A stretch of 64,000 nt of DNA, from positions 26,648 to 90,647 of the IMG/VR virus record IMGVR_UViG_3300043603_000010; one strand, 5' to 3'. The notes beneath the pieces were generated by a model, which searched no databases, was not told the origin of the DNA, and saw nothing but the letters and a program-made list of their open reading frames with translations. A program made the position numbers and the translations under genes. This document shows, piece after piece, positions 18,311 through 57,355 of the stretch (its first letter is position 1; each line of letters starts with the position of its first letter). The DNA comes from a virus (Duplodnaviria; Caudoviricetes).

Positions 18311-18654
18311 CTCTCCTCATTCCTTGTCGGGTCTGAAAGGTTCTGCTCGCGCCAGTGCGCGATTCCGGACGCGTTCGCCCGGCGGCACTTGGGGCACGGA
18401 GGTTCACCGTTGCGCAGGTGCCTCCGGTAGGCGGTGCGGTCACCGCAGTCCTCGTACCAGCCGATCAGTCCGTGCAGCACGGCCAGGTGGACCGCGTGCA
18501 CGGTGCTCCTGGCGTCCAGCTTCCGGATGGCCCGGTGCACGGCCATCCGGGTTCCCGCCTCGGTGGTTCCGAGCCGCTTGGCGGCCTGGTGGTTGGTGTC
18601 CCCGAGCGCCATGCGCTGGAGCGCGTCCGTCTCCCGCCGTGTCAGCGGTTTCAC
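18307..18654 (-). CDS. LuxR-type HTH regulator fused to Cys/His motif
   Basis: LTRRETDALQRMALGDTNHQAAKRLG...KLDARS LuxR HTH; C-terminal CG...RRHLRNGEPPCPKC. Confidence 0.8.
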   Translation of the reverse strand: MKPLTRRETDALQRMALGDTNHQAAKRLGTTEAGTRMAVHRAIRKLDARSTVHAVHLAVLHGLIGWYEDCGDRTAYRRHLRNGEPPCPKCRRANASGIAHWREQNLSDPTRNEER

Positions 18655-19190
18655 CGGACCGGGCCGGTCATCGTGTACGCGTCCGGGTGGAGTGGGCACC
18701 CGACGTGCCGGTCGGCGTGCATGTGCCGACGGCCGTCCGCCGCGCAGTGCGGAGAAGCGGGGCAGGTCGGCGAGCAGCGGCAGACCGCTCCGGCCGGGGG
18801 CTCGCGCCAGCCGGTCCATCCATGGTCGTCCTTGTCGGCGGTCCAGGCGGCCAGCGCGGCGGTGTCCGCTGCGCTCAGCGTCCCGATACCTCTGCCGCCT
18901 GACGCCGACTTCCAGCCGACCGAGACCGAGACGGTACCGGGGAACGGCGACCGCAGCCGGGCATAGTGCAGAGGGGTCTTGAACACCAGCTCCCGCAGGT
19001 GGTCAGTGCCCAGCCAGGTGCGCAGCTCGGTGAACTGCTCCCGCTCCAGCAGGAACGACGCCCCGCCCCCGATGGTCCGGTGGAACACACGCAGATCCGT
19101 GGTGCGGTCCAGCGGCTTCCGGTACCGGGGTCCGAGTTCGACCACCGTGCGACCGTCGGCACAGCGTGCCTGGAATCCATCGATCTTCAT
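18651..19190 (-). CDS. hypothetical protein with C-terminal Cys/His-rich motif
   Basis: GAGGAGAGAAC RBS. Confidence 0.65.
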   Translation of the reverse strand: MKIDGFQARCADGRTVVELGPRYRKPLDRTTDLRVFHRTIGGGASFLLEREQFTELRTWLGTDHLRELVFKTPLHYARLRSPFPGTVSVSVGWKSASGGRGIGTLSAADTAALAAWTADKDDHGWTGWREPPAGAVCRCSPTCPASPHCAADGRRHMHADRHVGCPLHPDAYTMTGPVR

Positions 19191-19220
19191 CGTTCTCTCC
19201 TCGATCAAGTGGTGCTCGTG

Positions 19221-19293
19221 AGCCCCGAGCAGGTCTCGAACCTGCTGCCTGCTGATTACGAATCAGCTGCTCTACCGGATGAGCTACCGGGGC
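19221..19293 (-). tRNA. tRNA-Thr(CGT), canonical cloverleaf, no encoded CCA
   Basis: GCCCCGG-TA-GCTC/GAGC D arm, GCTGA-TTCGTAA-TCAGC anticodon arm, GCAGG-TTCGAGA-CCTGC T arm, TCGGGGC. Confidence 0.85.
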
Positions 19294-19363
19294 GGGAGGA
19301 GCTTTCTTCCAGAAGGACCGTCGCCGGGTATCTGGCCCGGCGGGGTACTCCCCGCCTTCTTCG

Positions 19364-19435
19364 CTCCCGCTCCGGGGCTCGAACCCGGCCAGCCGACGCC
19401 ATGGACGCCTGCTGTCCTCCGGCAGTGGTGCGGGA
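19364..19435 (-). tRNA. degenerate tRNA-like element, anticodon position CAT
   Basis: T arm CCGGG-TTCGAGC-CCCGG, 6/7 acceptor pairs, weak D and anticodon stems, C33. Confidence 0.5.
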
Positions 19436-19465
19436 AGGTGCCCGGCCGGAGCCGGGCCGTACGGG

Positions 19466-19663
19466 TCAGACCTGGTCCTCCACCATGTGCTTCAGGTGCG
19501 CCTGGTCGGCGTCCCAGGCAGCGGCGTACTGGAGCGCCTCGCCCTCGCGGCACACGGCCACCGGGACGACGTCCCCGGTGCTCTCGTCCAGCTTGGCGGT
19601 ACACCCGGTGTGCTCCACCAGGTGGCTCTCGAACTCGCGCTGGGTGCTCGGGTCTCCGAACAT
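19466..19663 (-). CDS. hypothetical protein (65 aa)
   Basis: AAAGGAGAG RBS; sits between two tRNA-like elements. Confidence 0.7.
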   Translation of the reverse strand: MFGDPSTQREFESHLVEHTGCTAKLDESTGDVVPVAVCREGEALQYAAAWDADQAHLKHMVEDQV

Positions 19664-19698
19664 AGTGTCCTTCTCTCCTTTGTCGGGTGGTGCGTGCA

Positions 19699-19784
19699 GT
19701 GGCGGGCGGCGATTCGAACGCCGCACCCCTCGCCGGTCGCTCCTCTCCGGAGCTACTGGGTTCGGCTCTGCTCATGATCCGCCA
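19699..19784 (-). ncRNA. degenerate class-II-sized tRNA-like element
   Basis: T arm CGGCG-TTCGAAT-CGCCG and TGGCGG/CCGCCA acceptor pairing; central GCTC/GAGC hairpin; D arm not recognisable. Confidence 0.4.
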
Positions 19785-19830
19785 GTACAGATGCCTCTGT
19801 ACTTCCAGCTGCCGGTGCGCACCGGCCGCG

Positions 19831-19902
19831 CTCCTCGCCGTGGATTCGAACCACGATCAGCCACTCCAGGGGCGGCTGTCCTGCCGGTTGGACGAACGGG
19901 GA
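19831..19902 (-). tRNA. tRNA-Gln(CTG), atypical (C33, one acceptor mismatch)
   Basis: U1-A72, G73, GTCC/GGAC D stem, GCCGC-CCCTGGA-GTGGC, CGTGG-TTCGAAT-CCACG. Confidence 0.75.
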
Positions 19903-19972
19903 AGGTGTCCGGCCGGAGCCGGACCGTTCTTCGATCTCTTTCGCTCTTTTCCATCTTACTGCGCACTTACGG

Positions 19973-20044
19973 TGGACGCAACGCGGGTCGAACGCGCATC
20001 CCGCCTCTTTTAAGGAGGCTGCTCTTCCGTTGAGCTATGCGCCC
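19973..20044 (-). tRNA. class I tRNA with TAA anticodon and alanine-type acceptor stem (G3:U70, A73)
   Basis: GGGCGCA/TGCGTCC-A acceptor, GCTC/GAGC, GCCTC-CTTAAAA-GAGGC, 5-nt variable loop, GCGCG-TTCGACC-CGCGT. Confidence 0.85.
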
Positions 20045-20050
20045 CCGGGG

Positions 20051-20758
20051 TCAGTCCTCCGGGACCTGTACAGGGGTGGCGAAGACACGGGTGTACGTGT
20101 TGATCGTGGGGTACTCCTCACTGCGGCCGTACACCTCCCAGCGCCGGGCCCTGGTCGCTTCTGCGACGGTACGCGCGAAGCCGGGGCCGATGCACACGGG
20201 TTCCCCGCCGTCGTCCGGCAGCACGCAGCGGCCGTTCTTCGTGAACGGTGCTCCGTCGACGTGGACGGAGACGACCACGCCACGACGGGCGGTGCCGCTG
20301 TCCGTCCAGCCGACCCACGATCCGGCCTCGAACGGCGCGGTGGCCGGACGCGGAACCGACCGCTTCTTGCGGGACCGCCTGACGTCGCGCACGACCGCTT
20401 CCGTCTCACCGGGGAAACTGGCCCGCAGCCGGGCGTACGCGCCGTCCTGGGGACGCGCCTTCGGTCCGGTAAGGGCCAATTCGGCGTCCAGGTACCGGAG
20501 GCGTGCCTCACGCTCCTCCGCCTTCAGCACAGAGCGGGCTTCCAGGTCGACTCCGGGGCCGTAACCGGGATCCCGGGCCATTGCGGCGTAGTACTCCTCC
20601 TTGGCGTCGTCGCGGACCTTCTCCAGCCCGGCCAGGACGCCCGTGTAGCCGTCGCGCACGGCGGCGGTGACCGTCTTCGTGTGCGCGGCCTGCGTGCCTG
20701 ATGTGGTGACTACGGTCTCCGCTCCAGCGAAGTGCAGCCTGGTGGTGTGCTCGGTCAT
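20051..20758 (-). CDS. hypothetical protein (235 aa)
   Basis: GGAGGA RBS; ATGA coupling. Confidence 0.7.
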   Translation of the reverse strand: MTEHTTRLHFAGAETVVTTSGTQAAHTKTVTAAVRDGYTGVLAGLEKVRDDAKEEYYAAMARDPGYGPGVDLEARSVLKAEEREARLRYLDAELALTGPKARPQDGAYARLRASFPGETEAVVRDVRRSRKKRSVPRPATAPFEAGSWVGWTDSGTARRGVVVSVHVDGAPFTKNGRCVLPDDGGEPVCIGPGFARTVAEATRARRWEVYGRSEEYPTINTYTRVFATPVQVPED

Positions 20759-21204
20759 GTCGTCCTCCGTGCGGTGTGGTTGTACCAGGACACCGAGCGC
20801 GAGCAGGACCCGCAGCGGATCCACCGGCGCTTCGTCTGGGTGTTCTCGAACGAGACCGGCTGCGCGGGGTGCACCTCACGGGACCGCTGGAGGCAGTCCT
20901 GGCAGTCGTTGGCCTGCTCGTTGGGGCCCCGCAGCAGGAACGGCACGCCGTGCCCGCAGACGGCCGCCTGGGGGATGTCCCCGAACAGTCCGGGGAACTG
21001 CGCCCGGCCCGGGAACGCGGCACGGGCCGCCATCACGACGCCCTTGTAGCGGAACCCGTCCAGGCCGTCGGCCAGGGCGCGGACGCGTTCCAGCGCGTCC
21101 AGCTCCCACTCCAGTTCCAGCCGTTCGAGCAGGACGCGCAGGGAGTCCTGCGTCTTCGGGTGCATGCCGTCCGCGAAGGACAGCAGGTCGTCACGTGCGG
21201 ACAT
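20755..21204 (-). CDS. hypothetical protein with CGH/CxxC motifs
   Basis: AGAGGAG RBS; AVCGHG, CQDC, CGSC. Confidence 0.65.
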   Translation of the reverse strand: MSARDDLLSFADGMHPKTQDSLRVLLERLELEWELDALERVRALADGLDGFRYKGVVMAARAAFPGRAQFPGLFGDIPQAAVCGHGVPFLLRGPNEQANDCQDCLQRSREVHPAQPVSFENTQTKRRWIRCGSCSRSVSWYNHTARRTT

Positions 21205-21772
21205 GGCTTTCATCTCCTCTCTCGGGGTGGGGCGCTCCGCACCCGTTGCAGGTGCAGCGCCCGGTGTCCTTGTCGCGGCACTTCGGGCAGCGGCAGTAGC
21301 AGAGCAGGAACCCGCGAGCGGGCCCGCAGTAGCTGGCGTGCTCCGGGGACAGCGGCGGGTGCTTGCGTGCGCCCTGCTCCACCAGGTCGACCAGCAGAGA
21401 CGCCCGCCGCGCGGCGGTCCCCGGGTCCAGGCCTGCGTCCAGGTACGCCCGCACCAGGTGGTCCACCACTGTGCGCCGCGCCGCTCGGCTGTCCTCCATG
21501 GCCTTCCTCCATCTGAGCATCCGCTGGTAGTCGTTCAGGGCGCGTCGGCAGCGTCGGCAGGGCGGGGTCCGCTCGCGCCGGTGGATCATCCATCCGGCGT
21601 AGCTGCCGCACTTCCCGCTGGTGCAGGCGGCTCGTGCCCGCAGGCAGTCCCCGCAGGGACGCTCGTTGCGGCGCCGGTGCCGCAGCCACCCGTCGTTGCT
21701 GCCGCAGTCCTTCAGGCCGATCCCCAGCATGCGGCGCTGGTCCTCCGTCCAGACGACTCCGTGCCCGTTCAT
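21191..21772 (-). CDS. Cys/His-repeat (putative Zn-binding) protein
   Basis: Two CG..xGW..H.R..E.PC..C units plus C-terminal CYCRCPKC...CTCNGC. Confidence 0.7.
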   Translation of the reverse strand: MNGHGVVWTEDQRRMLGIGLKDCGSNDGWLRHRRRNERPCGDCLRARAACTSGKCGSYAGWMIHRRERTPPCRRCRRALNDYQRMLRWRKAMEDSRAARRTVVDHLVRAYLDAGLDPGTAARRASLLVDLVEQGARKHPPLSPEHASYCGPARGFLLCYCRCPKCRDKDTGRCTCNGCGAPHPERGDESHVRT

Positions 21773-21850
21773 TCGGCCTTCTCTCCTCGATCTGTTCAGG
21801 CGTACAGGACCGGGGTAGGCGTCCGGCAGTCAGCGCATCGGAGGTGCCCC

Positions 21851-21919
21851 GTGCTGGAGACCGTCCTGATCATCGTGCTCATCGTCGCCATCGTCCTGTT
21901 CGTCCTGCGACGGTTGTAG
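21851..21919 (+). CDS. 22-aa hydrophobic peptide, antisense to the arm (type I toxin-like)
   Basis: GGAGGTG RBS, GTG start; MLETVLIIVLIVAIVLFVLRRL*. Confidence 0.65.
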   Translation: MLETVLIIVLIVAIVLFVLRRL

Positions 21920-21934
21920 CCGGTCGTCCCTGCG

Positions 21935-22006
21935 CACTCGCAGCCGGTCATGATCCGGCATCTCCGCCTTGAAAGGGCGGCGGGCATCCGATTACCCCAT
22001 GCGAGC
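21935..22006 (-). tRNA. tRNA-Glu(TTC)-like with non-canonical T loop (ATCATGA)
   Basis: CCGCC-CTTTCAA-GGCGG anticodon arm; GCCGG-ATCATGA-CCGGC; acceptor GCTCGCA/TGCGAGT. Confidence 0.7.
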
Positions 22007-22036
22007 GGGTGCCCGGCCGGAGCCGGGCGGGTGGTG

Positions 22037-22639
22037 CTACTTCTTGTGTGCGGAGAAGCTGAACGACGGTGCTCCGACCAGCTGGACCGACTTCGTGGCC
22101 GCGTCCCACTTGGCCGGGCCGAACACGGTCTGCACCGGACCCTCCCAGTAGTCGGCGTAGGGCTTGCCGTCGGCACCGACGCAGATCACGTAGGTCCCGG
22201 CGGAGTCGCCGGAGTAGACGCCGGTCGGGTCCATCTGCCCGACCGTGATGTTGCCGCCGTTCGACTCGCTGTGCCCGACCACCTGTTGCGGGTTGGTCAG
22301 CTGGTCGGTGGACGGGATCGGCGCACCGATCGACGGGCAGACCTGGATCGGCGCGTACCCGGCGGACCCGGAAGCGCCCATCGGGAAGAAGAACGTGGTG
22401 GTCTCGACACCCTGTGCCTGCGCGTTCTCCAGCTCGATCAGGTTCTGCCGGAGCTGGCTGTACGTGTAGCCCGGGATGCCCTGGTTGTTGATCAGAGTCC
22501 CGGAGTCGGTGGCCTGCTTGGACGACTCGACGTTGTTGGCGCTCGGCTTGCTGCTGCCGAAGCAGGCGGTCAACCCGAATGTGGCCAGCACGGCGACCGA
22601 GACGGCCACGGCGATACGCGACCCGGCGATGTTCCTCAT
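22037..22639 (-). CDS. lipoprotein
   Basis: Signal peptide with lipobox GLTA-C; conserved-looking GPVQT/YVICVG region. Confidence 0.8.
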   Translation of the reverse strand: MRNIAGSRIAVAVSVAVLATFGLTACFGSSKPSANNVESSKQATDSGTLINNQGIPGYTYSQLRQNLIELENAQAQGVETTTFFFPMGASGSAGYAPIQVCPSIGAPIPSTDQLTNPQQVVGHSESNGGNITVGQMDPTGVYSGDSAGTYVICVGADGKPYADYWEGPVQTVFGPAKWDAATKSVQLVGAPSFSFSAHKK

Positions 22640-22653
22640 GCGGCGGTTCCCCT

Positions 22654-23037
22654 TCACTTGGCGGACCCTGCGGAGCAGTGGTCAGCGACGTACGCGGCCT
22701 GGTCGGTCGGCAGCGGATCGCCGGTGACCTGGTCCGCGTCCTGGCAGACGATGTTGACGAGTGCCTTCTGCTGCGCCTTCAGCGCTGCCGTCTCCGCTGC
22801 GTCCCCGGAGACCTCGGTGATCTGCGTCCCGATGGCCTGCGCGTCAGCGATCTTGTTCGTGATCTGCTCGCGCAGGGTCTGCTGGTTGCTGTAGCCGTTG
22901 CGGACCAGGTGCGCGTCCCGGGCGGCGTTCTGACCGGCGAACCACCATCCGGCCTGCCAGCCCCCCAGGACGATCCCGGTGACGATGGCAGCGGCCAGCA
23001 GGACGCCGAGGACACCTCTGGTCATTGCTGTGAACAC
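22654..23037 (-). CDS. membrane-anchored protein (partner of the lipoprotein)
   Basis: N-terminal TM helix, GGWQAGWWF, two C-terminal Cys. Confidence 0.75.
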   Translation of the reverse strand: MFTAMTRGVLGVLLAAAIVTGIVLGGWQAGWWFAGQNAARDAHLVRNGYSNQQTLREQITNKIADAQAIGTQITEVSGDAAETAALKAQQKALVNIVCQDADQVTGDPLPTDQAAYVADHCSAGSAK

Positions 23038-23064
23038 ATGCTCTCCTCTCACTCGGTGTGTGCG

Positions 23065-23137
23065 TGCGCCCGGCAGGGGTCGAACCTGCGCGCTCCGGGG
23101 CTTCACTCCGGTGCTCTGCCAGCTGAGCTACGGACGC
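23065..23137 (-). tRNA. tRNA-Phe(GAA), atypical anticodon loop (G32, C38, 31-39 mismatch)
   Basis: GCGTCCG/CGGGCGC-A, GCTC-AGCTGGCA-GAGC, CCGGA-GTGAAGC-CCCGG, GCAGG-TTCGACC-CCTGC. Confidence 0.75.
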
Positions 23138-23164
23138 GGGCGCCCCGGCGGTCCGGGGCCGTTC

Positions 23165-23593
23165 TCAGAACTCCGGCAGCGGCTGCACCGGCGGCAGCCA
23201 GGCGACCTCCACTCCGTCGGACTTGCGGACCCAGCGTTTGCCGGGGCCCTGCGACCGGTACGGGTCAACGCTGTCGGCCAGGTGCGCCCGTGCGGGGTTG
23301 GCCACCAGGTCGGACCTGGGGCTCACCCGCAGCTCCTGCGCCACGGCGTGCCGGGTCAGTTCGTCGGCCCGCTTCAGCCGGACGGACAGTTCGGTGGCCA
23401 CGGTGCAGGCGGTGGACGTCGCGTTGTTGACGTACGGCATCACCATCCGCGCGTCCTCCGCTCCCTTCTCCAACCACTGGCAGGCCTGGTTGACCGCCCG
23501 GCGCAGCTCGGTCGGTGTGGCCGCCTTGACGAAGGCTCTCAACCGATCCTCGAACGCGTCGATATCGCCGATCCGTACGCTAGGTGCGTTCAT
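23165..23593 (-). CDS. hypothetical protein
   Basis: AGAGGAGAG RBS. Confidence 0.7.
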   Translation of the reverse strand: MNAPSVRIGDIDAFEDRLRAFVKAATPTELRRAVNQACQWLEKGAEDARMVMPYVNNATSTACTVATELSVRLKRADELTRHAVAQELRVSPRSDLVANPARAHLADSVDPYRSQGPGKRWVRKSDGVEVAWLPPVQPLPEF

Positions 23594-23605
23594 CGTGCTC
23601 TCCTC

Positions 23606-23878
23606 TCACTTCGGGTTCTGCCGGGCCACGCGCTGCATGAAGTCGATCGCGTTGACCAGGCTGACGCGCTGCTCCGGGGTGTCGGTCCCGGTGATGTGCG
23701 TCACGTGCGGCACCCTGGCCATGTCGGTGTGGACCCGCCAGAACGGCCCTGCGCTCCCGTCGCGGAAGACGTCCGGGTAGTCGTAGACCAAGTGCGTCCG
23801 TGCGGCTTCGTGGACGCAGTCGGCATGGACGAACCCGGCTTGCGCCGCAGCCGCGTCCAGCATCTTCAGACTGGCCAT
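23606..23878 (-). CDS. hypothetical protein (90 aa)
   Basis: AGAGGAGAG RBS directly after tRNA-like element. Confidence 0.7.
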   Translation of the reverse strand: MASLKMLDAAAAQAGFVHADCVHEAARTHLVYDYPDVFRDGSAGPFWRVHTDMARVPHVTHITGTDTPEQRVSLVNAIDFMQRVARQNPK

Positions 23879-23906
23879 CGTGCTCTCCTCTCGATCGGTG
23901 TATGCG

Positions 23907-23989
23907 TGCGCCCGGCCGGACTCGAACCAGCACTGTCACCGACTGCCCTTACAGGCGTCGGCTGCCTCTGCCTATTGGGCTACGGACGC
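23907..23989 (-). ncRNA. tRNA-like element with extended anticodon arm (Leu-type D arm)
   Basis: Acceptor identical to the Phe element; D arm GCCCAATAGGCAGAGGC; anticodon stem GCCGAC/GTCGGT capped by GCCT-GTAA-GGGC; canonical T arm. Confidence 0.65.
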
Positions 23990-24016
23990 GGGTGCCCGGC
24001 CGGAGCCGGGCCGTTC

Positions 24017-24454
24017 TCAGGACCGGCCGATCCGCACCGTGTTGGGTGCCTGCGGCTTGACGTACAGGACGTTGATCCCGCTGACTTCCAGCTGGCCGTC
24101 CTTCATCTTCACCTCGAACCCCTCTGCCGGACCCGAGTCCGCGTCCCGGAACTCCACCGTGACACCGTGGCCCAGAGGGCGGACATCCTTGCCCGGGTCG
24201 TCACCCCAGCCCCCGTCACTGACGGCGGAGGTGGACAGCCACAGGAAGGTGTCGCTGTCGGCGGGTCCCTCGTTCAGCAGGGCACGGGCCGCGTCCACCT
24301 CTTCGGCCGCCTTCTCCGCAGTGCGGAGCCTGGACGCCTCTGCACTGCGGAGCCGGACGTCCAGGACGGCAACCAGCTGCTGCACCCATGCAGGCTGCTT
24401 GGCCAGCCTGGGGTCCTTGGCCTTCTCGTGCAGCTGCTCGTTGGTCATCGTCAT
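24017..24454 (-). CDS. hypothetical protein
   Basis: AGAGGAGAG RBS; DPRLAKQPAWVQQL and PLGHGVTVEF motifs. Confidence 0.7.
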   Translation of the reverse strand: MTMTNEQLHEKAKDPRLAKQPAWVQQLVAVLDVRLRSAEASRLRTAEKAAEEVDAARALLNEGPADSDTFLWLSTSAVSDGGWGDDPGKDVRPLGHGVTVEFRDADSGPAEGFEVKMKDGQLEVSGINVLYVKPQAPNTVRIGRS

Positions 24455-24481
24455 CGTGCTCTCCTCTCGGTCGGTCGTGCG

Positions 24482-24552
24482 CACCCCCGGCCGGTCATGA
24501 TCCGGCACTTCCGCCTTGAGGGGGCGGCGAGCATCCGTTACTCAACGGGGGC
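24482..24552 (-). tRNA. tRNA-Glu(CTC)-like with non-canonical T loop (ATCATGA) and C33
   Basis: GCCCCCGTT...CCGCC-CCCTCAA-GGCGG...CGGGGGT closely resembles actinomycete tRNA-Glu(CTC). Confidence 0.7.
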
Positions 24553-24583
24553 GGGTGCCCGGCCAGGCCGGGCTGTTCGGTGG

Positions 24584-24805
24584 TCACGGCTCCAGGCACT
24601 CCTCCGAGACCTCGAATGCGGAGAAGGCGACCACGTGCAGGTCCGCCGGATAGACGCCCTTCTCCTTGGCCCATTCCTGGAGCATGAGCCTCTCAGTCTG
24701 GTCCTCGGAGAAGACGTCGACCGCGTCCCCGGTGATCGTCCACTTGCCGGAGACGAGACCGAAGGAGTGTGCTTCCACCAGGGCGACGTACGCGTACCTG
24801 GCCAC
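24584..24805 (-). CDS. hypothetical protein (73 aa)
   Basis: ORF track; GTG 2 nt after upstream stop. Confidence 0.6.
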   Translation of the reverse strand: MARYAYVALVEAHSFGLVSGKWTITGDAVDVFSEDQTERLMLQEWAKEKGVYPADLHVVAFSAFEVSEECLEP

Positions 24806-24807
24806 GG

Positions 24808-25053
24808 CTACCGCCCTTCCGGCTTCAGCAGGGACACCCGGACGTCCGTGTCCGTGCCGGGGTACGGCGCGAGCAGGGAATCCGTACGCAGATGGACACC
24901 GAGCCGGGCACCGGCAGCCATGCCCGGCAGGCTCAGCACTTCCCAGCGGGCCGCCTGCAACAGCGCGTTGCGGTTGTCGAGCGCGGTCAGCGTCAGGAAC
25001 ATGCGCTCTTCCTCGGTCGGCTCCGCCACCAGGTCGAACAGGGTCCTGGTCAT
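24808..25053 (-). CDS. hypothetical protein (81 aa)
   Basis: CGACCGAGGAGAGAAC RBS. Confidence 0.65.
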   Translation of the reverse strand: MTRTLFDLVAEPTEEERMFLTLTALDNRNALLQAARWEVLSLPGMAAGARLGVHLRTDSLLAPYPGTDTDVRVSLLKPEGR

Positions 25054-25086
25054 CGTTCTCTCCTCGGTCGTCGGATCGTACGTGCG

Positions 25087-25169
25087 TTCCCCGCCGTGGA
25101 CTCGAACCACGATCGCCGAAGCACCGGAACCAGCCGGGTACGGTCTGTCCGCCGGTCGGACAGCAGGGA
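25087..25169 (-). ncRNA. tRNA-Gln-derived tRNA-like element with expanded anticodon arm
   Basis: TCCCTGC/GCGGGGA acceptor, GTCC/GGAC D stem, CGTGG-TTCGAGT-CCACG T arm shared with the Gln gene; no 7-nt anticodon loop. Confidence 0.6.
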
Positions 25170-25215
25170 TGGTGCCAGCCGGGCAGGGTTCGTCACACCC
25201 CCTGCCCGGCCGGGT

Positions 25216-25416
25216 CTAGTGGAGGACCATCGCGAGAAGGAACGCCGTCATGAAACCGATGACGACGATGGCGGTCGGTAGGCCTGGATGGTCGGAGACG
25301 GACAGGAAGCCGTCCGTGATCTCGTCCAGGACGGACCGCCGTGGCTTCTCCGGTCCGACGCGCTTCGGGTCGTACCGACGGGATGGCCCGTTGCGGACGT
25401 ACAGCCCGGCGTTCAC
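25216..25416 (-). CDS. small membrane protein
   Basis: C-terminal TM helix; GTGA coupling. Confidence 0.6.
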   Translation of the reverse strand: MNAGLYVRNGPSRRYDPKRVGPEKPRRSVLDEITDGFLSVSDHPGLPTAIVVIGFMTAFLLAMVLH

Positions 25417-25553
25417 AGGCTCAGCAGCCAGAGCAGCAGGGGGTACATCATCGCGCAGATGATCAGGCTGAACGCCAGCTCCACCACGGTCTGCGCCGCG
25501 TTGGACCGGGAGGCGAACCTCCCGATTACGTCCACGATCCGCCCGGCGTTCAC
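25413..25553 (-). CDS. small membrane protein (46 aa)
   Basis: GTGA couplings at both ends; VVELAFSLIICAMMYPLLLWLLSL. Confidence 0.55.
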   Translation of the reverse strand: MNAGRIVDVIGRFASRSNAAQTVVELAFSLIICAMMYPLLLWLLSL

Positions 25554-52467: not shown

Positions 52468-52923
52468 ATGATCAAGCCTATCGAGACGCGTTACGCGGGG
52501 TGCCGCTTCAGGTCCCGGCTGGAAGCCAGAGTGGCCGTCCTGCTGGACGAACTGGGTGCGGCCTGGGAGTACGAGCCGCAGGGCTTCGCCACCGATGCGG
52601 GGCCCTACCTGCCCGACTTCCTGGCGGCGCTGGACGGCGGCGGTGCGTGCTGGATCGAGGTCAAGGGGAAGGACGCGCCCACCGAGCGGGAGTTCGCCGT
52701 GGCGCGCGAAGTGGAGGCCGGGACGGGATCACGGCTGGTCTTCCTGTGCGGGGACCTGCCCCGGGAGTGCACCGAGGACGGCGGGGAGGGCTGCCTTCCC
52801 GCGCTGCGCACCGACGGCTCGCCGACGCTGCTGTGCTTCGACGGTGCCGACGCGGCACGGATGGACGCGGCGCTGTCCACAGCGCGCAGTGCCCGGTTCG
52901 AGCACGGGGAGCACGGCCGGTGA
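52468..52923 (+). CDS. PD-(D/E)XK-type endonuclease-like protein
   Basis: FRSRLEAR...WEYEP...YLPDFL...WIEVKG. Confidence 0.75.
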   Translation: MIKPIETRYAGCRFRSRLEARVAVLLDELGAAWEYEPQGFATDAGPYLPDFLAALDGGGACWIEVKGKDAPTEREFAVAREVEAGTGSRLVFLCGDLPRECTEDGGEGCLPALRTDGSPTLLCFDGADAARMDAALSTARSARFEHGEHGR

Positions 52924-55502
52924 CCGCCGTGGACGACGCTCCGGCAGCCGCTGTGTACGGGCCGGAGCTGGGGGAGGCGCACCAGCAGGAGCTGGCCAGA
53001 TCCGTGGTGGCTCCCGAGCTGGCGAACTCGCGCGGCTACCGGACGCTGTACGGGACCGAGGACGACCGGCGGCTGCTGCGCGACGCGCAGATCCCGCGCT
53101 GGGGCTGGCGCGAGGACGCGGCCTTCCCGGGCCTGCTGCTGCCGATGTACCGGGTCAGCGGCGAGCTGATCAGCTACCAGTGGAAGCCGTGCGTACCACA
53201 GCCCCGCAGCCCCGAGGACCGCAACCCGCCGAAGTACGTGACGTCGTCGGGCCTGATGCACCTGGACGTGCCGCCGGTGGCGGGCGAGCGGGTGCGCGAC
53301 GTGTCGGTACCCCTGTGGATCACCGAGGGGATCAAGAAGGCCGACTGCCTGGCCGGGCAGGGGCGGGCGCCGCTGACCGTGACCGGCGTCTACAACTGGC
53401 GGAACAAGCACACGACGCTGGGGGACTGGGAGGACGTCCCGCTGCGCGGGCGCTCGGTGGTGGTCTGCTTCGACTCCGACGCGCGGGACAACCGGAACGT
53501 GATGACGGCCATGCAGCGGCTGGGCCGCTGGCTGGAGTCCAAGGGCACCCGGGACGTGCAGTACGTGATCGTCCCTGCGGACGTGGGCGGCGTCCCGGTC
53601 AAGGGCGTGGACGACTTCTTCGCGGCCGGGGGCACGCTGGACGGGCTGCGCGAGGCGGCGCGCCGGGAGCTGCCGACCGAGGGACCGCAGGACGCGGCGT
53701 TCACGGACGCGGTGCTGGCCGACACGCTCTGCTCGGAGGCCCTGGACGGGGTGTACCGCTGGGCGTCGGGACTGGGGTGGATGCACTGGAGCGGCCGGGT
53801 CTGGGAGGCGGTCACCGACGTGGCGGTGACCGAGGAGATCCGGCTGTGGGCCCTGGACCGGTTCGCCGGAGCCCTGGACCGGCAGCGGGTGGACCCGGAC
53901 CGGCAGCTGTCGGCGCAGATCGACGGCTGGCGCTCGGTGCTGGGAGCCGGTCGGCTGCGCTCGCTGGTCTCGCTGGCGCGCGGGGTGCTGGAGTGCGCGG
54001 CGGAGGACTTCGATGCCGACAAGGACCTGTTCAACTGCCCGAACGGCGTGGTCGACCTGCGCACGGGGCAGCTGCTGCCGTCCGACCCGGACCTGCTGAT
54101 GACGAAGATCGCCGGATGCGACTACGTCAAGGGCGTGTCCCATCCGGACTGGGACCTGGCGCTGACCGCGCTGCCCGACGACGTCCGGGGCTGGTTCCAG
54201 CTGCGGATGGGGCAGGCGGCCACCGGGTGGACGCCCCCGGACGACGTGGTGGTGATCAGCGAGGGTTCGGGCAGCAACGGGAAGTCGACCACCGTCGACG
54301 CCATGACCACGGTCTTCGGGCAGTACCGGGTGGCCGTGGCCGACCGGGCGCTGCTGGGGTCCGCGAGCGACAACCACCCCACCGAGATGATGGACTTCCT
54401 GGGGGCGCGGTACGCGGTGCTGGAGGAGACGCCGGAGGGGAAGAAGCTGGACACGGTCCGGCTGAAGAAGACGGCGGGGACCAAGGAGATCACCGCGCGC
54501 CGGATCCGGAAGGACAGTGTGACCTTCCCGGTCACGCACTCGATGTTCATCTCCACCAACAACCGGCTGATGGTCACCGACACGGACCACGGCACCTGGA
54601 GGCGGCTGGCGCTGCTGAAGTGGCCGTACACCTACCAGGACAGCGAAGCGGAGTGCAAGGGGCCGATGGACCGGGCCAAGGACCCCACGCTGCGCCAGCG
54701 GGTGGCGGGCGACCCGCAGGTGATGGAGGCGGCGCTGGCCTGGGTGGTGCAGGGCGCGTCGGCCTGGTACGCGGCCGGGCGGATCATGCCGGAGCACCCG
54801 GCCCGGGTGAAGGCCGACACGATGAAGTGGCGCAGGGAGGCGGACCCGGTGATGGGGTTCCTGGACGCGTGCACGGTCTTCGATCCCCGGGCGCACGTGA
54901 TGGCCACCGAGCTGTTCGAGGCCTTCGACCGGTGGATGGTGGAGCAGAAGAACACGTCCTGGTCGATGAAGCTGTTCAAGGCGCGGTTCGAAGGGCACCA
55001 GCTGCTGGTCCAGAACGGTGTGGCGGTGAAGAAGGTCAAGTACAACGCGGGGCTGTCGCGCTGGAACGGGGACCTGTCCCATCCGGCGGTCTACAGCGCC
55101 TGGACCGGGATCCGCTTCAACCGTCCCGAGGATGACGCGTCAAGTCTCGACGATCTTGACGGTGACAACTCCGGGACAAGCCCTTTCGATCATGATCCCG
55201 GGGGTCCCGCGTCAAGTCCCAGCGATCTTCAGAGGGGTGGTAGCGCGATCTTGAGCGAATCTCCCACCTGCAAGGTTCCGGGAGTTCCGGCAAATTATAT
55301 AACGGCTCTATCGCGTAGCGATCCAGGGTTATCAGATTTGCCGGAACTGCCGGAACCTGATCTTGGAGAGGTCCGACTTGACACCCCCGTGTACACGGAG
55401 TCGGAGACCGCTACCGGCACCGACTTGACCGTGTACACGGACACAGATCCGGCGCCCGACGCGTTCGGCGGCACATTCGACTGGGAGGAGCCGTGGCCGT
55501 GA
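52920..55502 (+). CDS. primase-helicase (DUF3854-type primase + D5/P4-family SF3 helicase)
   Basis: LWITEGIKKAD, VCFDSD, KGVDDFF; NCPNGVVDLRTG; GSGSNGKST; STNN. Confidence 0.92.
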   Translation: MTAVDDAPAAAVYGPELGEAHQQELARSVVAPELANSRGYRTLYGTEDDRRLLRDAQIPRWGWREDAAFPGLLLPMYRVSGELISYQWKPCVPQPRSPEDRNPPKYVTSSGLMHLDVPPVAGERVRDVSVPLWITEGIKKADCLAGQGRAPLTVTGVYNWRNKHTTLGDWEDVPLRGRSVVVCFDSDARDNRNVMTAMQRLGRWLESKGTRDVQYVIVPADVGGVPVKGVDDFFAAGGTLDGLREAARRELPTEGPQDAAFTDAVLADTLCSEALDGVYRWASGLGWMHWSGRVWEAVTDVAVTEEIRLWALDRFAGALDRQRVDPDRQLSAQIDGWRSVLGAGRLRSLVSLARGVLECAAEDFDADKDLFNCPNGVVDLRTGQLLPSDPDLLMTKIAGCDYVKGVSHPDWDLALTALPDDVRGWFQLRMGQAATGWTPPDDVVVISEGSGSNGKSTTVDAMTTVFGQYRVAVADRALLGSASDNHPTEMMDFLGARYAVLEETPEGKKLDTVRLKKTAGTKEITARRIRKDSVTFPVTHSMFISTNNRLMVTDTDHGTWRRLALLKWPYTYQDSEAECKGPMDRAKDPTLRQRVAGDPQVMEAALAWVVQGASAWYAAGRIMPEHPARVKADTMKWRREADPVMGFLDACTVFDPRAHVMATELFEAFDRWMVEQKNTSWSMKLFKARFEGHQLLVQNGVAVKKVKYNAGLSRWNGDLSHPAVYSAWTGIRFNRPEDDASSLDDLDGDNSGTSPFDHDPGGPASSPSDLQRGGSAILSESPTCKVPGVPANYITALSRSDPGLSDLPELPEPDLGEVRLDTPVYTESETATGTDLTVYTDTDPAPDAFGGTFDWEEPWP
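55273..55358. promoter_or_regulatory. candidate replication origin: inverted repeat around an AT-rich core
   Basis: AGGTTCCGG-GA-GTTCCGGCAAAT ... ATTTGCCGGAAC-TG-CCGGAACCT flanking AAATTATATAA, in the low-complexity 3' end of primase-helicase. Confidence 0.55.
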
Positions 55503-57355
55503 GGAGGACCGCGTACTACGACATCGAGAGCTGCTCGGCAGACTGGCTCCGGACGTACCGGGGCCAGCAGGGGCCCTACGTGAGGCTGTGCGGCGTTTCT
55601 ACGGGGTCCCCGGTCTCCGGTGTCACCACGGACCCGCAGCGGCTCCTGGGCGTCCTGGAGGGCGCTGACGAGATCACCGGGCACAACATCATCGCGTTCG
55701 ACAACGCGGCGATGGCGCTGCACGCCGGAGCCGACTACGACGCGCTGTGCGCCAAGTCGGTGGACACGCTGGTCCTGGCCCGGCTGGAGGACCCGCCCGG
55801 CAGCCGGGGGCAGAAGCCCTGGGGGGTCAAGGGCTACTACTCGATGGACGCGGTGTGCAGGCGGCGCGGCCTGGTGGCCAAGACCGACGACCTGGCTGCG
55901 CTGGCTCGCGAGTACTGCCCGGACGGCACGCTGGGGGACGACGGGCGCAGGCTCACCGAGGCGGAGCGCACGTCGCTCGGCTTCGGGCTGATCCCGGCCG
56001 ACGACCCGCGCTACACGGACTACCTGCGCGGGGACATCGCGGCCACCCGGGCGCTGCGCGACTCGTACGGGGAGATCAGCGCCTACGCGCGCCGGGAGAT
56101 GAAGGTGGTCCACCTCCAGAACCGGATGTCGCTGACCGGCTGGCGGATCGACGAAGCCCTGCTGGAGGAGCGGGTGGCCCGGGAGGACCGGCGCCGGGAC
56201 GACGCGGCGGCGTTCCTGGCGCAGCTGGGCCTGCCGGTCACCAGGACGGTCCCGCACGGCCGGGGGAAGGCGAGGACCACCGAAGAGGAGGACATCGCCT
56301 CACCGCTGGCGACGAAGGTCGGGAAGGAGTGGATGGAGGGCGTCTGGAAGGACTTCGGCGTGCGCGAGGGGTCGGGGCGGTTCAACATCCCGCGCACGCC
56401 GAAGTCCGGCGACGTCGCGGTGGGCAGGGACAGGCTGGTCCCGTTCACCGAGCACCCGAACTGCCCGGCCGCGCTGAAGGAGATCCTGGCGGCGGTGCTC
56501 GACTTCACCGGGGCGACCCGCAAGTACGCGGAGATCGCCCGGTTCGTCGTCGACGGGCGGGTGCACCCCGGCGTGGGCGGCGACCAGGCGTCCGGCCGCT
56601 GGGCGATGGTGCGCCCGTCGACGACGAACCTGGGCAAGCACGGGGCCAAGCTCCAGGAGCGCGGCGTCTTCGTCGCCGACGAACCGGACCGGGAGTACCC
56701 GGACGGGTACGTCCACATCTGCTGCGACATGGACCAGGTCGACATGCGGGCCATCGCCGCGCTGTGCCAGGACCCGGCGTACATGCGGCTGTTCCTGCCC
56801 GGCGAGGACGCGCACTCCGCCAACGCGGACGCGATCTTCGGACGGCACGACGGCGAGTGGCGCGACCGGGCGAAGAAGATCGGCCACCTGTGGAACTACG
56901 GCGGCGGGATCGACGCGATCGTGCGCGCCGGGTCCAGCCGCGAGCACGCGGTGGCGTACGACCGCGCCATGCTGGCGACGTACCGCGTGCTGTGCGCCTG
57001 GCGGGAGGAGATCCGCGAGCAGGGCAGGCACGGGCTGCTGGACAACGGGTTCGGCCGGAAGATGCGCTGCGACCCGGGCCGCGCGTACACGCAGGCACCG
57101 GCGCTGATGGGGCAGGGCGGCGCGCGGGACCTGATGACGACCGGCATGCTCCGGCTGGCCGACGCGGTCCCCGAGTCGGTGGCCTGGTTCCGGGGTGTCG
57201 TCCATGACGAGATCGTCCTGTCCGTGCCGAGGAAGCACGTGGAGGAGATCACCCGCGAGGTGCAGAAGGCGATGACGTTCGAGTGGCGCGGCGTGGCCAT
57301 CACGTCCGCCGTCACGAAGCCCGGAGACAACTGGGCATCGTGCTACCCCGAATGA
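55499..57355 (+). CDS. DNA polymerase family A with 3'-5' exonuclease
   Basis: YYDIES, GHNIIAFD; motif A DMDQVDMR, motif B RDRAKKIGHLWNYG, motif C VHDEI. Confidence 0.93.
   Translation: MRRTAYYDIESCSADWLRTYRGQQGPYVRLCGVSTGSPVSGVTTDPQRLLGVLEGADEITGHNIIAFDNAAMALHAGADYDALCAKSVDTLVLARLEDPPGSRGQKPWGVKGYYSMDAVCRRRGLVAKTDDLAALAREYCPDGTLGDDGRRLTEAERTSLGFGLIPADDPRYTDYLRGDIAATRALRDSYGEISAYARREMKVVHLQNRMSLTGWRIDEALLEERVAREDRRRDDAAAFLAQLGLPVTRTVPHGRGKARTTEEEDIASPLATKVGKEWMEGVWKDFGVREGSGRFNIPRTPKSGDVAVGRDRLVPFTEHPNCPAALKEILAAVLDFTGATRKYAEIARFVVDGRVHPGVGGDQASGRWAMVRPSTTNLGKHGAKLQERGVFVADEPDREYPDGYVHICCDMDQVDMRAIAALCQDPAYMRLFLPGEDAHSANADAIFGRHDGEWRDRAKKIGHLWNYGGGIDAIVRAGSSREHAVAYDRAMLATYRVLCAWREEIREQGRHGLLDNGFGRKMRCDPGRAYTQAPALMGQGGARDLMTTGMLRLADAVPESVAWFRGVVHDEIVLSVPRKHVEEITREVQKAMTFEWRGVAITSAVTKPGDNWASCYPE

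Follow-up and report, generated by a model that had tools for sequence, protein, structure and literature searches.

Introduction

Hybrid-identity tRNAs, in which the anticodon and the acceptor end point to different amino acids, are already known from yeasts and bacteria. The tRNA-Ala(CAG) of Pachysolen tannophilus and the yeast 'CUG-Ala' clade (PMC4937558; reviewed in PMC11415595) is a natural tRNA that joins alanine identity (G3:U70) to the anticodon of a leucine codon, a hybrid permitted by the indifference of AlaRS to the anticodon. The yeast reassignment is nuclear and genome-wide, is matched by changes in codon use, and has been confirmed as alanine by mass spectrometry. A second group is formed by the natural allo-tRNAs of bacteria and metagenomes, of which those with G3:U70 led to alanine insertion in E. 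coli (Mukai et al. 2017, PMC5389517); they are likewise of hybrid identity, their anticodons include ones for UUA and UUG, their variable arm is long and their acceptor/T architecture is 8/4 or 9/3. In Streptomyces and its relatives, the tRNA-ProX/ProRSx pairs provide a further example of an actinomycete tRNA whose anticodon and acceptor do not match: proline identity is combined with Ala, Thr or Asn anticodons, a dedicated synthetase is present and the genes are chromosomal (PMC10404621).

The UUA codon has a special place in Streptomyces, where it gates development and antibiotic production and is read by the bldA tRNA-Leu(UAA), a chromosomally encoded class II tRNA with a long variable arm that is charged with leucine (PMC2000904, PMC10732093). 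[quoted passage not shown] The G3:U70 pair is sufficient for AlaRS to charge foreign tRNA bodies, and tRNA-Tyr given G3:U70 takes both amino acids (PMC9976931, PMC11415595). Two identity sets on one tRNA can lead to charging by both enzymes (PMC9976931, PMC11415595, PMC5389517).

Here we describe a phage tRNA gene that joins a UAA anticodon to an alanine-type acceptor stem. It has the same anticodon as the bldA tRNA and probably belongs to the same host group; it is, by structure, no bldA homologue, being set apart by the class of its body rather than by sequence comparison, since it is a class I tRNA with an alanine acceptor. Unlike the allo-tRNAs it has the standard 7/5 class I architecture, and unlike the tRNA-ProX systems it is accompanied by no encoded synthetase, so that the host AlaRS would act on it. 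It differs from the yeast tRNA in being phage-borne, in reading the codon UUA and in having no clear descent from tRNA-Ala, and it is known here from sequence alone. In the literature covered, which leaves out most subscription journals, we found no description of a phage tRNA that combines alanine identity with a leucine anticodon, and phages are absent from the text of a 2024 review of mistranslating tRNAs.

Results and discussion

A class I tRNA with a UAA anticodon and an alanine-type acceptor stem

The window analysed here is a stretch of 64,000 nucleotides, the right-hand 64 kb of a 90,647-bp IMG/VR virus record of 68.9% GC that is rated complete. ARAGORN calls a tRNA-Leu(taa) in it (Table 1), and the Rfam model RF00005 covers the 72-nt tRNA end to end (model positions 1-71) with 57.2 bits (E = 1.3e-10; gathering score 29), the second-best Rfam score within the tRNA cluster of the window. 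Read as the reverse complement, the gene gives a canonical 7/5 class I cloverleaf. The acceptor stem is formed by G1:C72, G2:C71, G3:U70, C4:G69, G5:C68, C6:G67 and A7:U66 and is followed by A73; the D arm has a 4-bp stem (GCUC/GAGC) and a 7-nt loop (AACGGAA), the anticodon arm a 5-bp stem (GCCUC/GAGGC) and the loop C-U-UAA-A-A, and a 5-nt variable loop (GGGAU) precedes the T arm GCGCG-UUCGACC-CGCGU. The invariant bases are complete (U8, A14, G18, G19, A21, U33, G53, U54, U55, C56, A58 and C61), and the tertiary partners A15:U48, A26/G44, G10:C25/G45 and C13:G22/G46 are conventional. The CCA end is only partly encoded: C74 and C75 are followed by a G, so that the terminal A must be added post-transcriptionally. 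Folded by minimum free energy, the bare sequence does not form a cloverleaf, which is common for tRNAs and carries no weight against the covariance-model match. The first-pass annotation, made by reading the letters, had described a clean cloverleaf with a UAA loop, a short variable loop, G1:C72, G2:C71, G3:U70 and A73; ARAGORN, Rfam and the sequence agree with it on every one of these points, and the strand, which was only implicit there, is the minus strand.

Table 1. Positions of the features discussed, given on the plus strand; window coordinates except where another locus is named.
Feature	Location	Strand	Source or remark
Class I tRNA, anticodon UAA	19971..20044	minus	ARAGORN, Rfam RF00005, direct reading
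Extent of the Rfam match (72 nt)	19973-20044	minus	RF00005
G3 of the tRNA	20042	minus
U70 of the tRNA	19976	minus	pairs with G3 (RNA strand)
A73 of the tRNA	19973	minus
C74 and C75 of the tRNA	19971-19972	minus
Anticodon of the tRNA	20010-20012	minus
257-aa ORF, function not assigned	20051..20824	minus	ORF list, GC3 gene call
tRNA-Gln(CUG)-like gene, non-canonical anticodon loop	19830..19902	minus	ARAGORN, sequence
tRNA-Phe(GAA)-like gene	23064-23137	minus	mismatch in anticodon stem
tRNA-like gene, 84 nt	23906-23989	minus	ARAGORN
RadD/XPB-like helicase with intein, 946 aa	46729-49569	minus	NCBIfam
Primase-helicase ORF, 1000 aa	52500-55502
Primase-helicase and family-A DNA polymerase	52500-57355
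Former primase-polymerase linker	~55090-55400
Sole TTA in a confidently called gene of the 90.6-kb genome	55329..55331	plus	codon counts
UAA tRNA with the alanine set, record G005 (91 kb)	L027		Rfam 69.7 bits
UAA tRNA with the alanine set, record G006 (15-kb fragment)	L031		Rfam 56.7 bits
UAA tRNA with the alanine set, record G010 (74 kb)	L065		Rfam 53.6 bits
Class I tRNA, anticodon UAG, 75 nt, record G005	L027:2969-3043
tRNA-Leu(CAA), 74 nt, Streptomyces phage GiJojo	L206:3657-3730
Truncated tRNA fragments, four metagenome contigs	L200:11889-11926; L201:6850-6885; L202:11499-11536; L203:4346-4382

The main AlaRS element, G3:U70, and the supporting elements A73, G2:C71 and G1:C72 are all present. 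Two minor elements of E. coli tRNA-Ala are absent: position 20 is A in place of G20, and 4:69 is C:G in place of G4:C69. Acceptors beginning GGGC also occur in phage tRNA-Ala genes, for example those of GiJojo and of loci L039 and L046, and C4:G69 is therefore compatible with tRNA-Ala. Descent of the gene from tRNA-Ala was considered and is not demonstrable, the body being generic, with phage tRNA-Trp and then tRNA-Ala as its best non-UAA matches. At another locus (L068) an alanine-type UAA-like gene adjoins a tRNA-Ala of which it is no recent duplicate.

The tRNA also carries part of the E. coli leucine set, namely A73, A14, A15:U48 and G18G19, and on these marks leucine charging or dual charging may occur. 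It is distinctly possible, if short of probable, that the gene encodes a plain short-armed leucine tRNA, which LeuRS would charge through A73 and the tertiary core and which would supply leucine at UUA when the bldA tRNA is scarce. The G3:U70 wobble would then be incidental, or simply tolerated, and the rarity of UUA would keep it harmless. [quoted passage not shown] However, the leucine-type D arm, with its 3-bp stem and enlarged loop containing A20a, is replaced by a stem of 4 bp and a 7-nt loop without a 20a, and the class II long variable arm is replaced by the 5-nt loop, which is not of the nnAGU type found in short phage tRNA-Leu (see below). Even if LeuRS charges this tRNA, AlaRS would compete for it through G3:U70.

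The alanine acceptor set is tied to alanine anticodons in phage tRNAs, with UAA as a recurrent exception

A background was assembled by running ARAGORN on all loci fetched in our pattern scans, which cover phage tRNA clusters, and keeping the distinct class I tRNAs with fully paired acceptor stems. Each of the 24 tRNA-Ala in this background has G3:U70, G3:U70 with A73, and the full set of G1:C72, G2:C71, G3:U70 and A73. By comparison, G3:U70 was found in only five of the 561 tRNAs with neither an alanine nor a UAA anticodon, G3:U70 with A73 in three, one of which is a tRNA-His register artefact, and the full set in none. The first-pass annotation had thus picked out a combination that is real, a complete AlaRS identity set on a tRNA with a UAA anticodon, and that set is otherwise exclusive to tRNA-Ala among these 585 phage class I tRNAs. 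Functional non-alanine tRNAs evidently avoid G3:U70, and this argues against its presence as a chance feature of a leucine tRNA. In favour of chance, the other tRNAs of this phage often have G.U pairs in their acceptor stems, which makes a wobble at 3:70 less improbable here than in the general background.

We also searched for UAA tRNAs that have the generic D arm (GCUC/GAGC), blind to the acceptor stem, and obtained 40 loci, from which 9 distinct tRNAs passed the strict filter used above. G3:U70 with A73 occurs in 4 of these 9 and in 2 of 157 controls (Fisher p = 5.9e-5), the controls being other non-alanine tRNAs with the same D arm that passed the same strict filter; the window tRNA is in neither count. 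Such an enrichment among generic-body UAA tRNAs (p = 6e-5) would be unexpected for a neutral wobble. A raw comparison of G3:U70 with G3:C70 loci (5 versus 113) at first seemed to oppose this enrichment and was rejected on inspection: the 113 G3:C70 loci are mostly members of a short tRNA-Leu family, together with tRNA-Lys genes caught by a one-base offset, and none of the G3:C70 loci fetched has both a generic D arm and a canonical UAA loop. Outside phages, the acceptor-plus-anticodon pattern gave only two matches in the representative genomes of 185,579 prokaryotic species, one in a Parcubacteria MAG and one in a gammaproteobacterial MAG, with none in Actinomycetota. Among the phage tRNAs sampled, therefore, the alanine set is strictly tied to alanine anticodons save for one recurrent exception, UAA. 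This stands whatever amino acid the exceptional tRNAs carry, and the exception needs explaining in either case.

Short tRNA-Leu genes form a separate phage family

The first-pass annotation had taken the short variable loop as a sign that the tRNA is not a leucine tRNA, bacterial tRNA-Leu being class II. That argument proved weak, because short tRNAs with leucine anticodons and a leucine-type D arm are numerous in phages, the isolated Streptomyces phage GiJojo among them. A pattern scan of IMG/VR for class I tRNAs with GGG...CCC-A acceptors and a UAA loop yielded the 113 loci mentioned above, most of which represent one conserved family. Its members are 72-75 nt long and have a 3-bp D stem of the GCC/GGC type, a leucine-type D loop with A14, A15 and G18G19, a 5-nt variable loop of the form nnAGU, a GUGGG/CCCAC T stem, A73 and G3:C70. 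They bear leucine anticodons, mostly UAA, and are found on about 50 IMG/VR contigs (L069-L148, for example L072, L078 and L079) from phages that range from 30% to 69% GC. The tRNA-Leu(CAA) of GiJojo is of the same build, with U3:A70. The short-armed tRNA-Leu therefore seems to be a regular feature of phages, and its wide occurrence lends weight to the possibility that the window tRNA is a leucine tRNA too.

The window tRNA resembles this family in being phage-encoded, of class I size and equipped with a leucine anticodon and A73. It differs from it in the 4-bp GCUC/GAGC D stem, the 7-nt D loop, the GGGAU variable loop and G3:U70, and has none of three family features (the GCC/GGC-type 3-bp D stem, the nnAGU variable loop and G3:C70). 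On these sequence features it falls outside the short tRNA-Leu family of phages.

The alanine/UAA combination recurs in other phages

Three further virus records of 66-69% GC carry UAA tRNAs with G1:C72, G2:C71, G3:U70 and A73 (Table 1). In each, the sole wobble of the acceptor stem sits exactly at 3:70. The three tRNAs are 59-71% identical to each other and to the window tRNA, and every other stem differs; judged from this, the four would be either independent inventions or old divergences that have kept the identity set. G006 and G010 have no tRNA besides the UAA one, and the same is true of G008, whose UAA tRNA has A3:U70; this points to a specific value of the UAA anticodon. Such recurrence in independent contigs from other samples speaks strongly against an assembly or sequencing artefact, in which U70 or the anticodon bases would be wrong. 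The record is an uncultivated virus genome derived from a metagenome, and error is conceivable on that ground. However, two separate errors would be needed, one at position 70 and another of one or two bases in the anticodon, and we consider this highly improbable.

The wobble is not universal among the UAA tRNAs of high-GC phages. The tRNA of G008, a record whose polA is 46% identical to that of this phage, and the UAA tRNA of G007, which has A3.C70, both lack G3:U70, as would be expected if a UAA tRNA of this kind were simply a leucine tRNA. Three other high-GC records (L026, L033 and L047) have Watson-Crick pairs at 3:70, and the tRNA of a further one (L129) belongs to the short tRNA-Leu family. 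Low-GC phages hold the alanine/UAA combination as well (L046, L063 and L067); UUA is a common codon in such phages, and alanine insertion there would be costly. In G005 a second class I tRNA, with the anticodon UAG for the leucine codons CUA and CUG, G1.U72 and A73, lies about 240 nt from the alanine-type UAA tRNA.

No orthologue of the window tRNA was found in any of the collections searched, and conservation of G3:U70 within its own lineage therefore cannot be shown. A blastn search against isolated phages gave nothing beyond a generic similarity to tRNA-Trp, Val, Lys and Asn, the exact anticodon-arm pattern gave chance matches in IMG/VR with no tRNA at the match, and the polA relatives lack this UAA tRNA. 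A 5'-half pattern found in metagenomes only truncated tRNA fragments adjoining tRNA-Ile. These fragments, on four contigs, consist of an acceptor strand, a D arm and a UAA-type anticodon loop that run into unrelated sequence; a complete tRNA-Ile(UAU), which starts with nearly the same 14 bases, follows about 60-100 nt further downstream. Such tRNA 5' halves may be remnants of integration or of tandem duplication.

The tRNA gene lies in a minus-strand cluster of a Streptomyces-type phage-plasmid

The best relatives of the polA product among isolated phages are those of Streptomyces phages (35% identity), and 43 of 48 matches to a 660-aa TraB-like translocase are to Streptomyces plasmids. The best TraB match belongs to the linear 'plasmid' pS1D4-14.2 of Streptomyces sp. 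S1D4-14 (98.8 kb; NZ_CP041606.1; L207, L208), which carries a complete structural module of a tailed phage, encodes a portal, capsid, tape measure, terminase, primase, ParA/ParB, WhiB, TraB and an integrase, and is syntenic with this genome over 36 proteins (25-62% identity). On this comparison the virus record and pS1D4-14.2 appear to belong to one Streptomyces-type phage-plasmid lineage. The host, as judged from these relatives, is very probably a Streptomyces-like actinomycete; the synteny, the TraB matches and the polA relatives all favour the Streptomyces setting that had been supposed at first reading.

Between 19.2 and 24.6 kb of the window, ARAGORN calls seven tRNA genes, all on the minus strand. 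The 257-aa ORF upstream of the UAA tRNA ends with a TGA stop 6 nt before base 1 of the tRNA; it gave no match in Pfam, PHROG or NCBIfam and has no relative in IMG/VR. Downstream, a GC-rich hairpin separates the UAA tRNA from the tRNA-Gln(CUG)-like gene, and no consensus promoter was found in window positions 18500-25500. Given the short distance to the stop codon, the tRNA is most likely cut from a long polycistronic transcript rather than transcribed from a promoter of its own.

This setting raises the question of whether the gene acts mainly outside decoding, as one of several tRNA-shaped processing signals along the operon, as the donor or decoy of a tRNA-binding enzyme, or as a decaying passenger that serves no selected function. 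The gene is one of a series of tRNA and tRNA-like elements, several non-canonical, that are interspersed with protein genes, and close relatives manage without the UAA tRNA, both of which would suit such a role. Nevertheless, the UAA tRNA is, with tRNA-Thr, the best-formed tRNA of the cluster, and its intact anticodon arm, U33 and A36-A37-A38 context would be needless for a mere processing signal. That UAA anticodons are joined to alanine acceptors in unrelated phages also weighs against it, and no aminoacyl-tRNA-dependent transferase was recognised in a non-exhaustive scan of the proteins. We regard a main role outside decoding as quite unlikely.

The phage has almost no codon for the tRNA to read

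Genes called by third-position GC cover 77% of the genome and hold 23,227 codons, exactly one of which is TTA (0.04 per 1000). The single in-frame TTA that the first-pass annotation had seen in the primase-helicase is confirmed by these counts, and the count over the whole phage that it had called for shows the codon to be nearly absent; a scan of every ORF of at least 50 codons, whatever its composition, found no further convincing TTA-containing gene. Streptomyces phages are usually without UUA (PMC10732093), and the counts here agree. The other tRNAs of the phage, by comparison, match heavily used codons (ACG 478, CAG 733, GAG 809 and TTC 580). Among 11 related or comparable high-GC elements, the carriers of a UAA tRNA have 0-0.24 TTA per 1000 codons and relatives without one have 0.17-0.27. 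Compensation for codon usage is ruled out as the reason for the gene, since there is one TTA in 23,227 codons and carriers have no more TTA than non-carriers. The near-absence of a cognate codon would also be in keeping with a role outside decoding.

The TTA is codon 944 of the primase-helicase. Homology to the primases of phage and plasmid relatives stops some 50-70 residues upstream of it, and the tail that contains the codon is acidic and rich in proline, with GC3 down to 0.4-0.6 in every frame. Primase and DNA polymerase are fused in a protein of about 1400 aa both in pS1D4-14.2 and in the IMG/VR relative G008. Here the primase-helicase and the family-A DNA polymerase are encoded by separate genes, which overlap at a GTGA stop/start preceded by a strong ribosome-binding site, and the primase tail, by comparison with the fused forms, is a vestige of the primase-polymerase linker. 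The former linker has no codon bias and holds ATA, CTA and TCA codons as well as the only TTA of the genome. The TTA site is thus in a non-conserved, disordered linker tail outside the catalytic part of the primase, and it is unlikely that leucine or alanine at codon 944 matters for the enzyme. Homologues give no residue for comparison at this TTA, which lies beyond the conserved part of the primase, and the TTA-containing ORFs of the other phages had no homologues among the sequences compared.

A model for UUA decoding by the phage tRNA

Our preferred reading, held with roughly even confidence, is that the gene encodes a bldA-independent UUA decoder of a Streptomyces-type phage-plasmid that is charged with alanine. 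For predominant or substantial charging with alanine, the chances appear about balanced. The gene and its structure, its identity marks, the missing codon demand and the recurrence in phages are matters of observation, and from them we infer expression, alanine charging and any effect on phage or host.

According to this model, the gene would encode a functional elongator tRNA, carried by a temperate-type phage-plasmid that infects a Streptomyces-like actinomycete. It would be transcribed within a long minus-strand operon, released by RNase P and 3' processing, and completed at its CCA end by a host enzyme. UUA readers are normally modified in the context of an A36-A37-A38 loop, as present here, and on the ribosome the tRNA would read UUA and perhaps also UUG. 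AlaRS would recognise G3:U70, backed by G2:C71, G1:C72 and A73; because it ignores the anticodon and recognises this acceptor set, alanine is the most likely amino acid, with leucine possibly attached as well. Decoding of UUA would thereby be freed from the developmentally limited bldA tRNA of the host. As the sole TTA of the phage is in a disordered linker, the inserted amino acid would hardly matter for the phage, and the benefit would lie in unblocking ribosomes at UUA, either on the primase-polA message or on host messages that contain TTA. Relief of stalling at UUA when the bldA tRNA is limiting is the simplest idea of what the phage gains. The first-pass annotation had suggested that alanine insertion at UUA might either bypass bldA control or corrupt regulators and defence genes of the host.

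In many Streptomyces the TTA codon of adpA, too, falls within an interdomain linker (PMC10732093). It might be, speculatively, that alanine is tolerated there as in the phage linker. A broader proposal, which we think unlikely, is that high-GC actinomycete phages and phage-plasmids repeatedly evolve an alanine-charged UUA reader that allows bldA-independent translation of TTA codons and so overrides or retimes the developmental and defence programme of the host. The targets could then be the phage linker codon or host regulators such as AdpA, and alanine would have been chosen because AlaRS is the sole synthetase that accepts a small generic body with any anticodon.

Should alanine charging hold, the tRNA would be a natural, virus-encoded recoder of a sense codon, acting at the very codon on which Streptomyces relies to control development and antibiotic production. 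Phage infection or lysogeny would then be linked to bldA-dependent regulation, and the tRNA would offer a ready tool for bldA-independent expression of biosynthetic genes that contain TTA.

Other elements of the window

The 84-nt tRNA-like gene of the cluster has an enlarged anticodon loop, in which ARAGORN reads the four-base anticodon CCUG, and its acceptor stem (GCGUCCG/CGGGCGC, A73) recurs in the neighbouring tRNA-Phe(GAA)-like gene. Elsewhere in the window, the intein of the RadD/XPB-like helicase is marked by an NCBIfam C-terminal splicing match at residues 515-537, within a gap of about 350 residues between two helicase matches.
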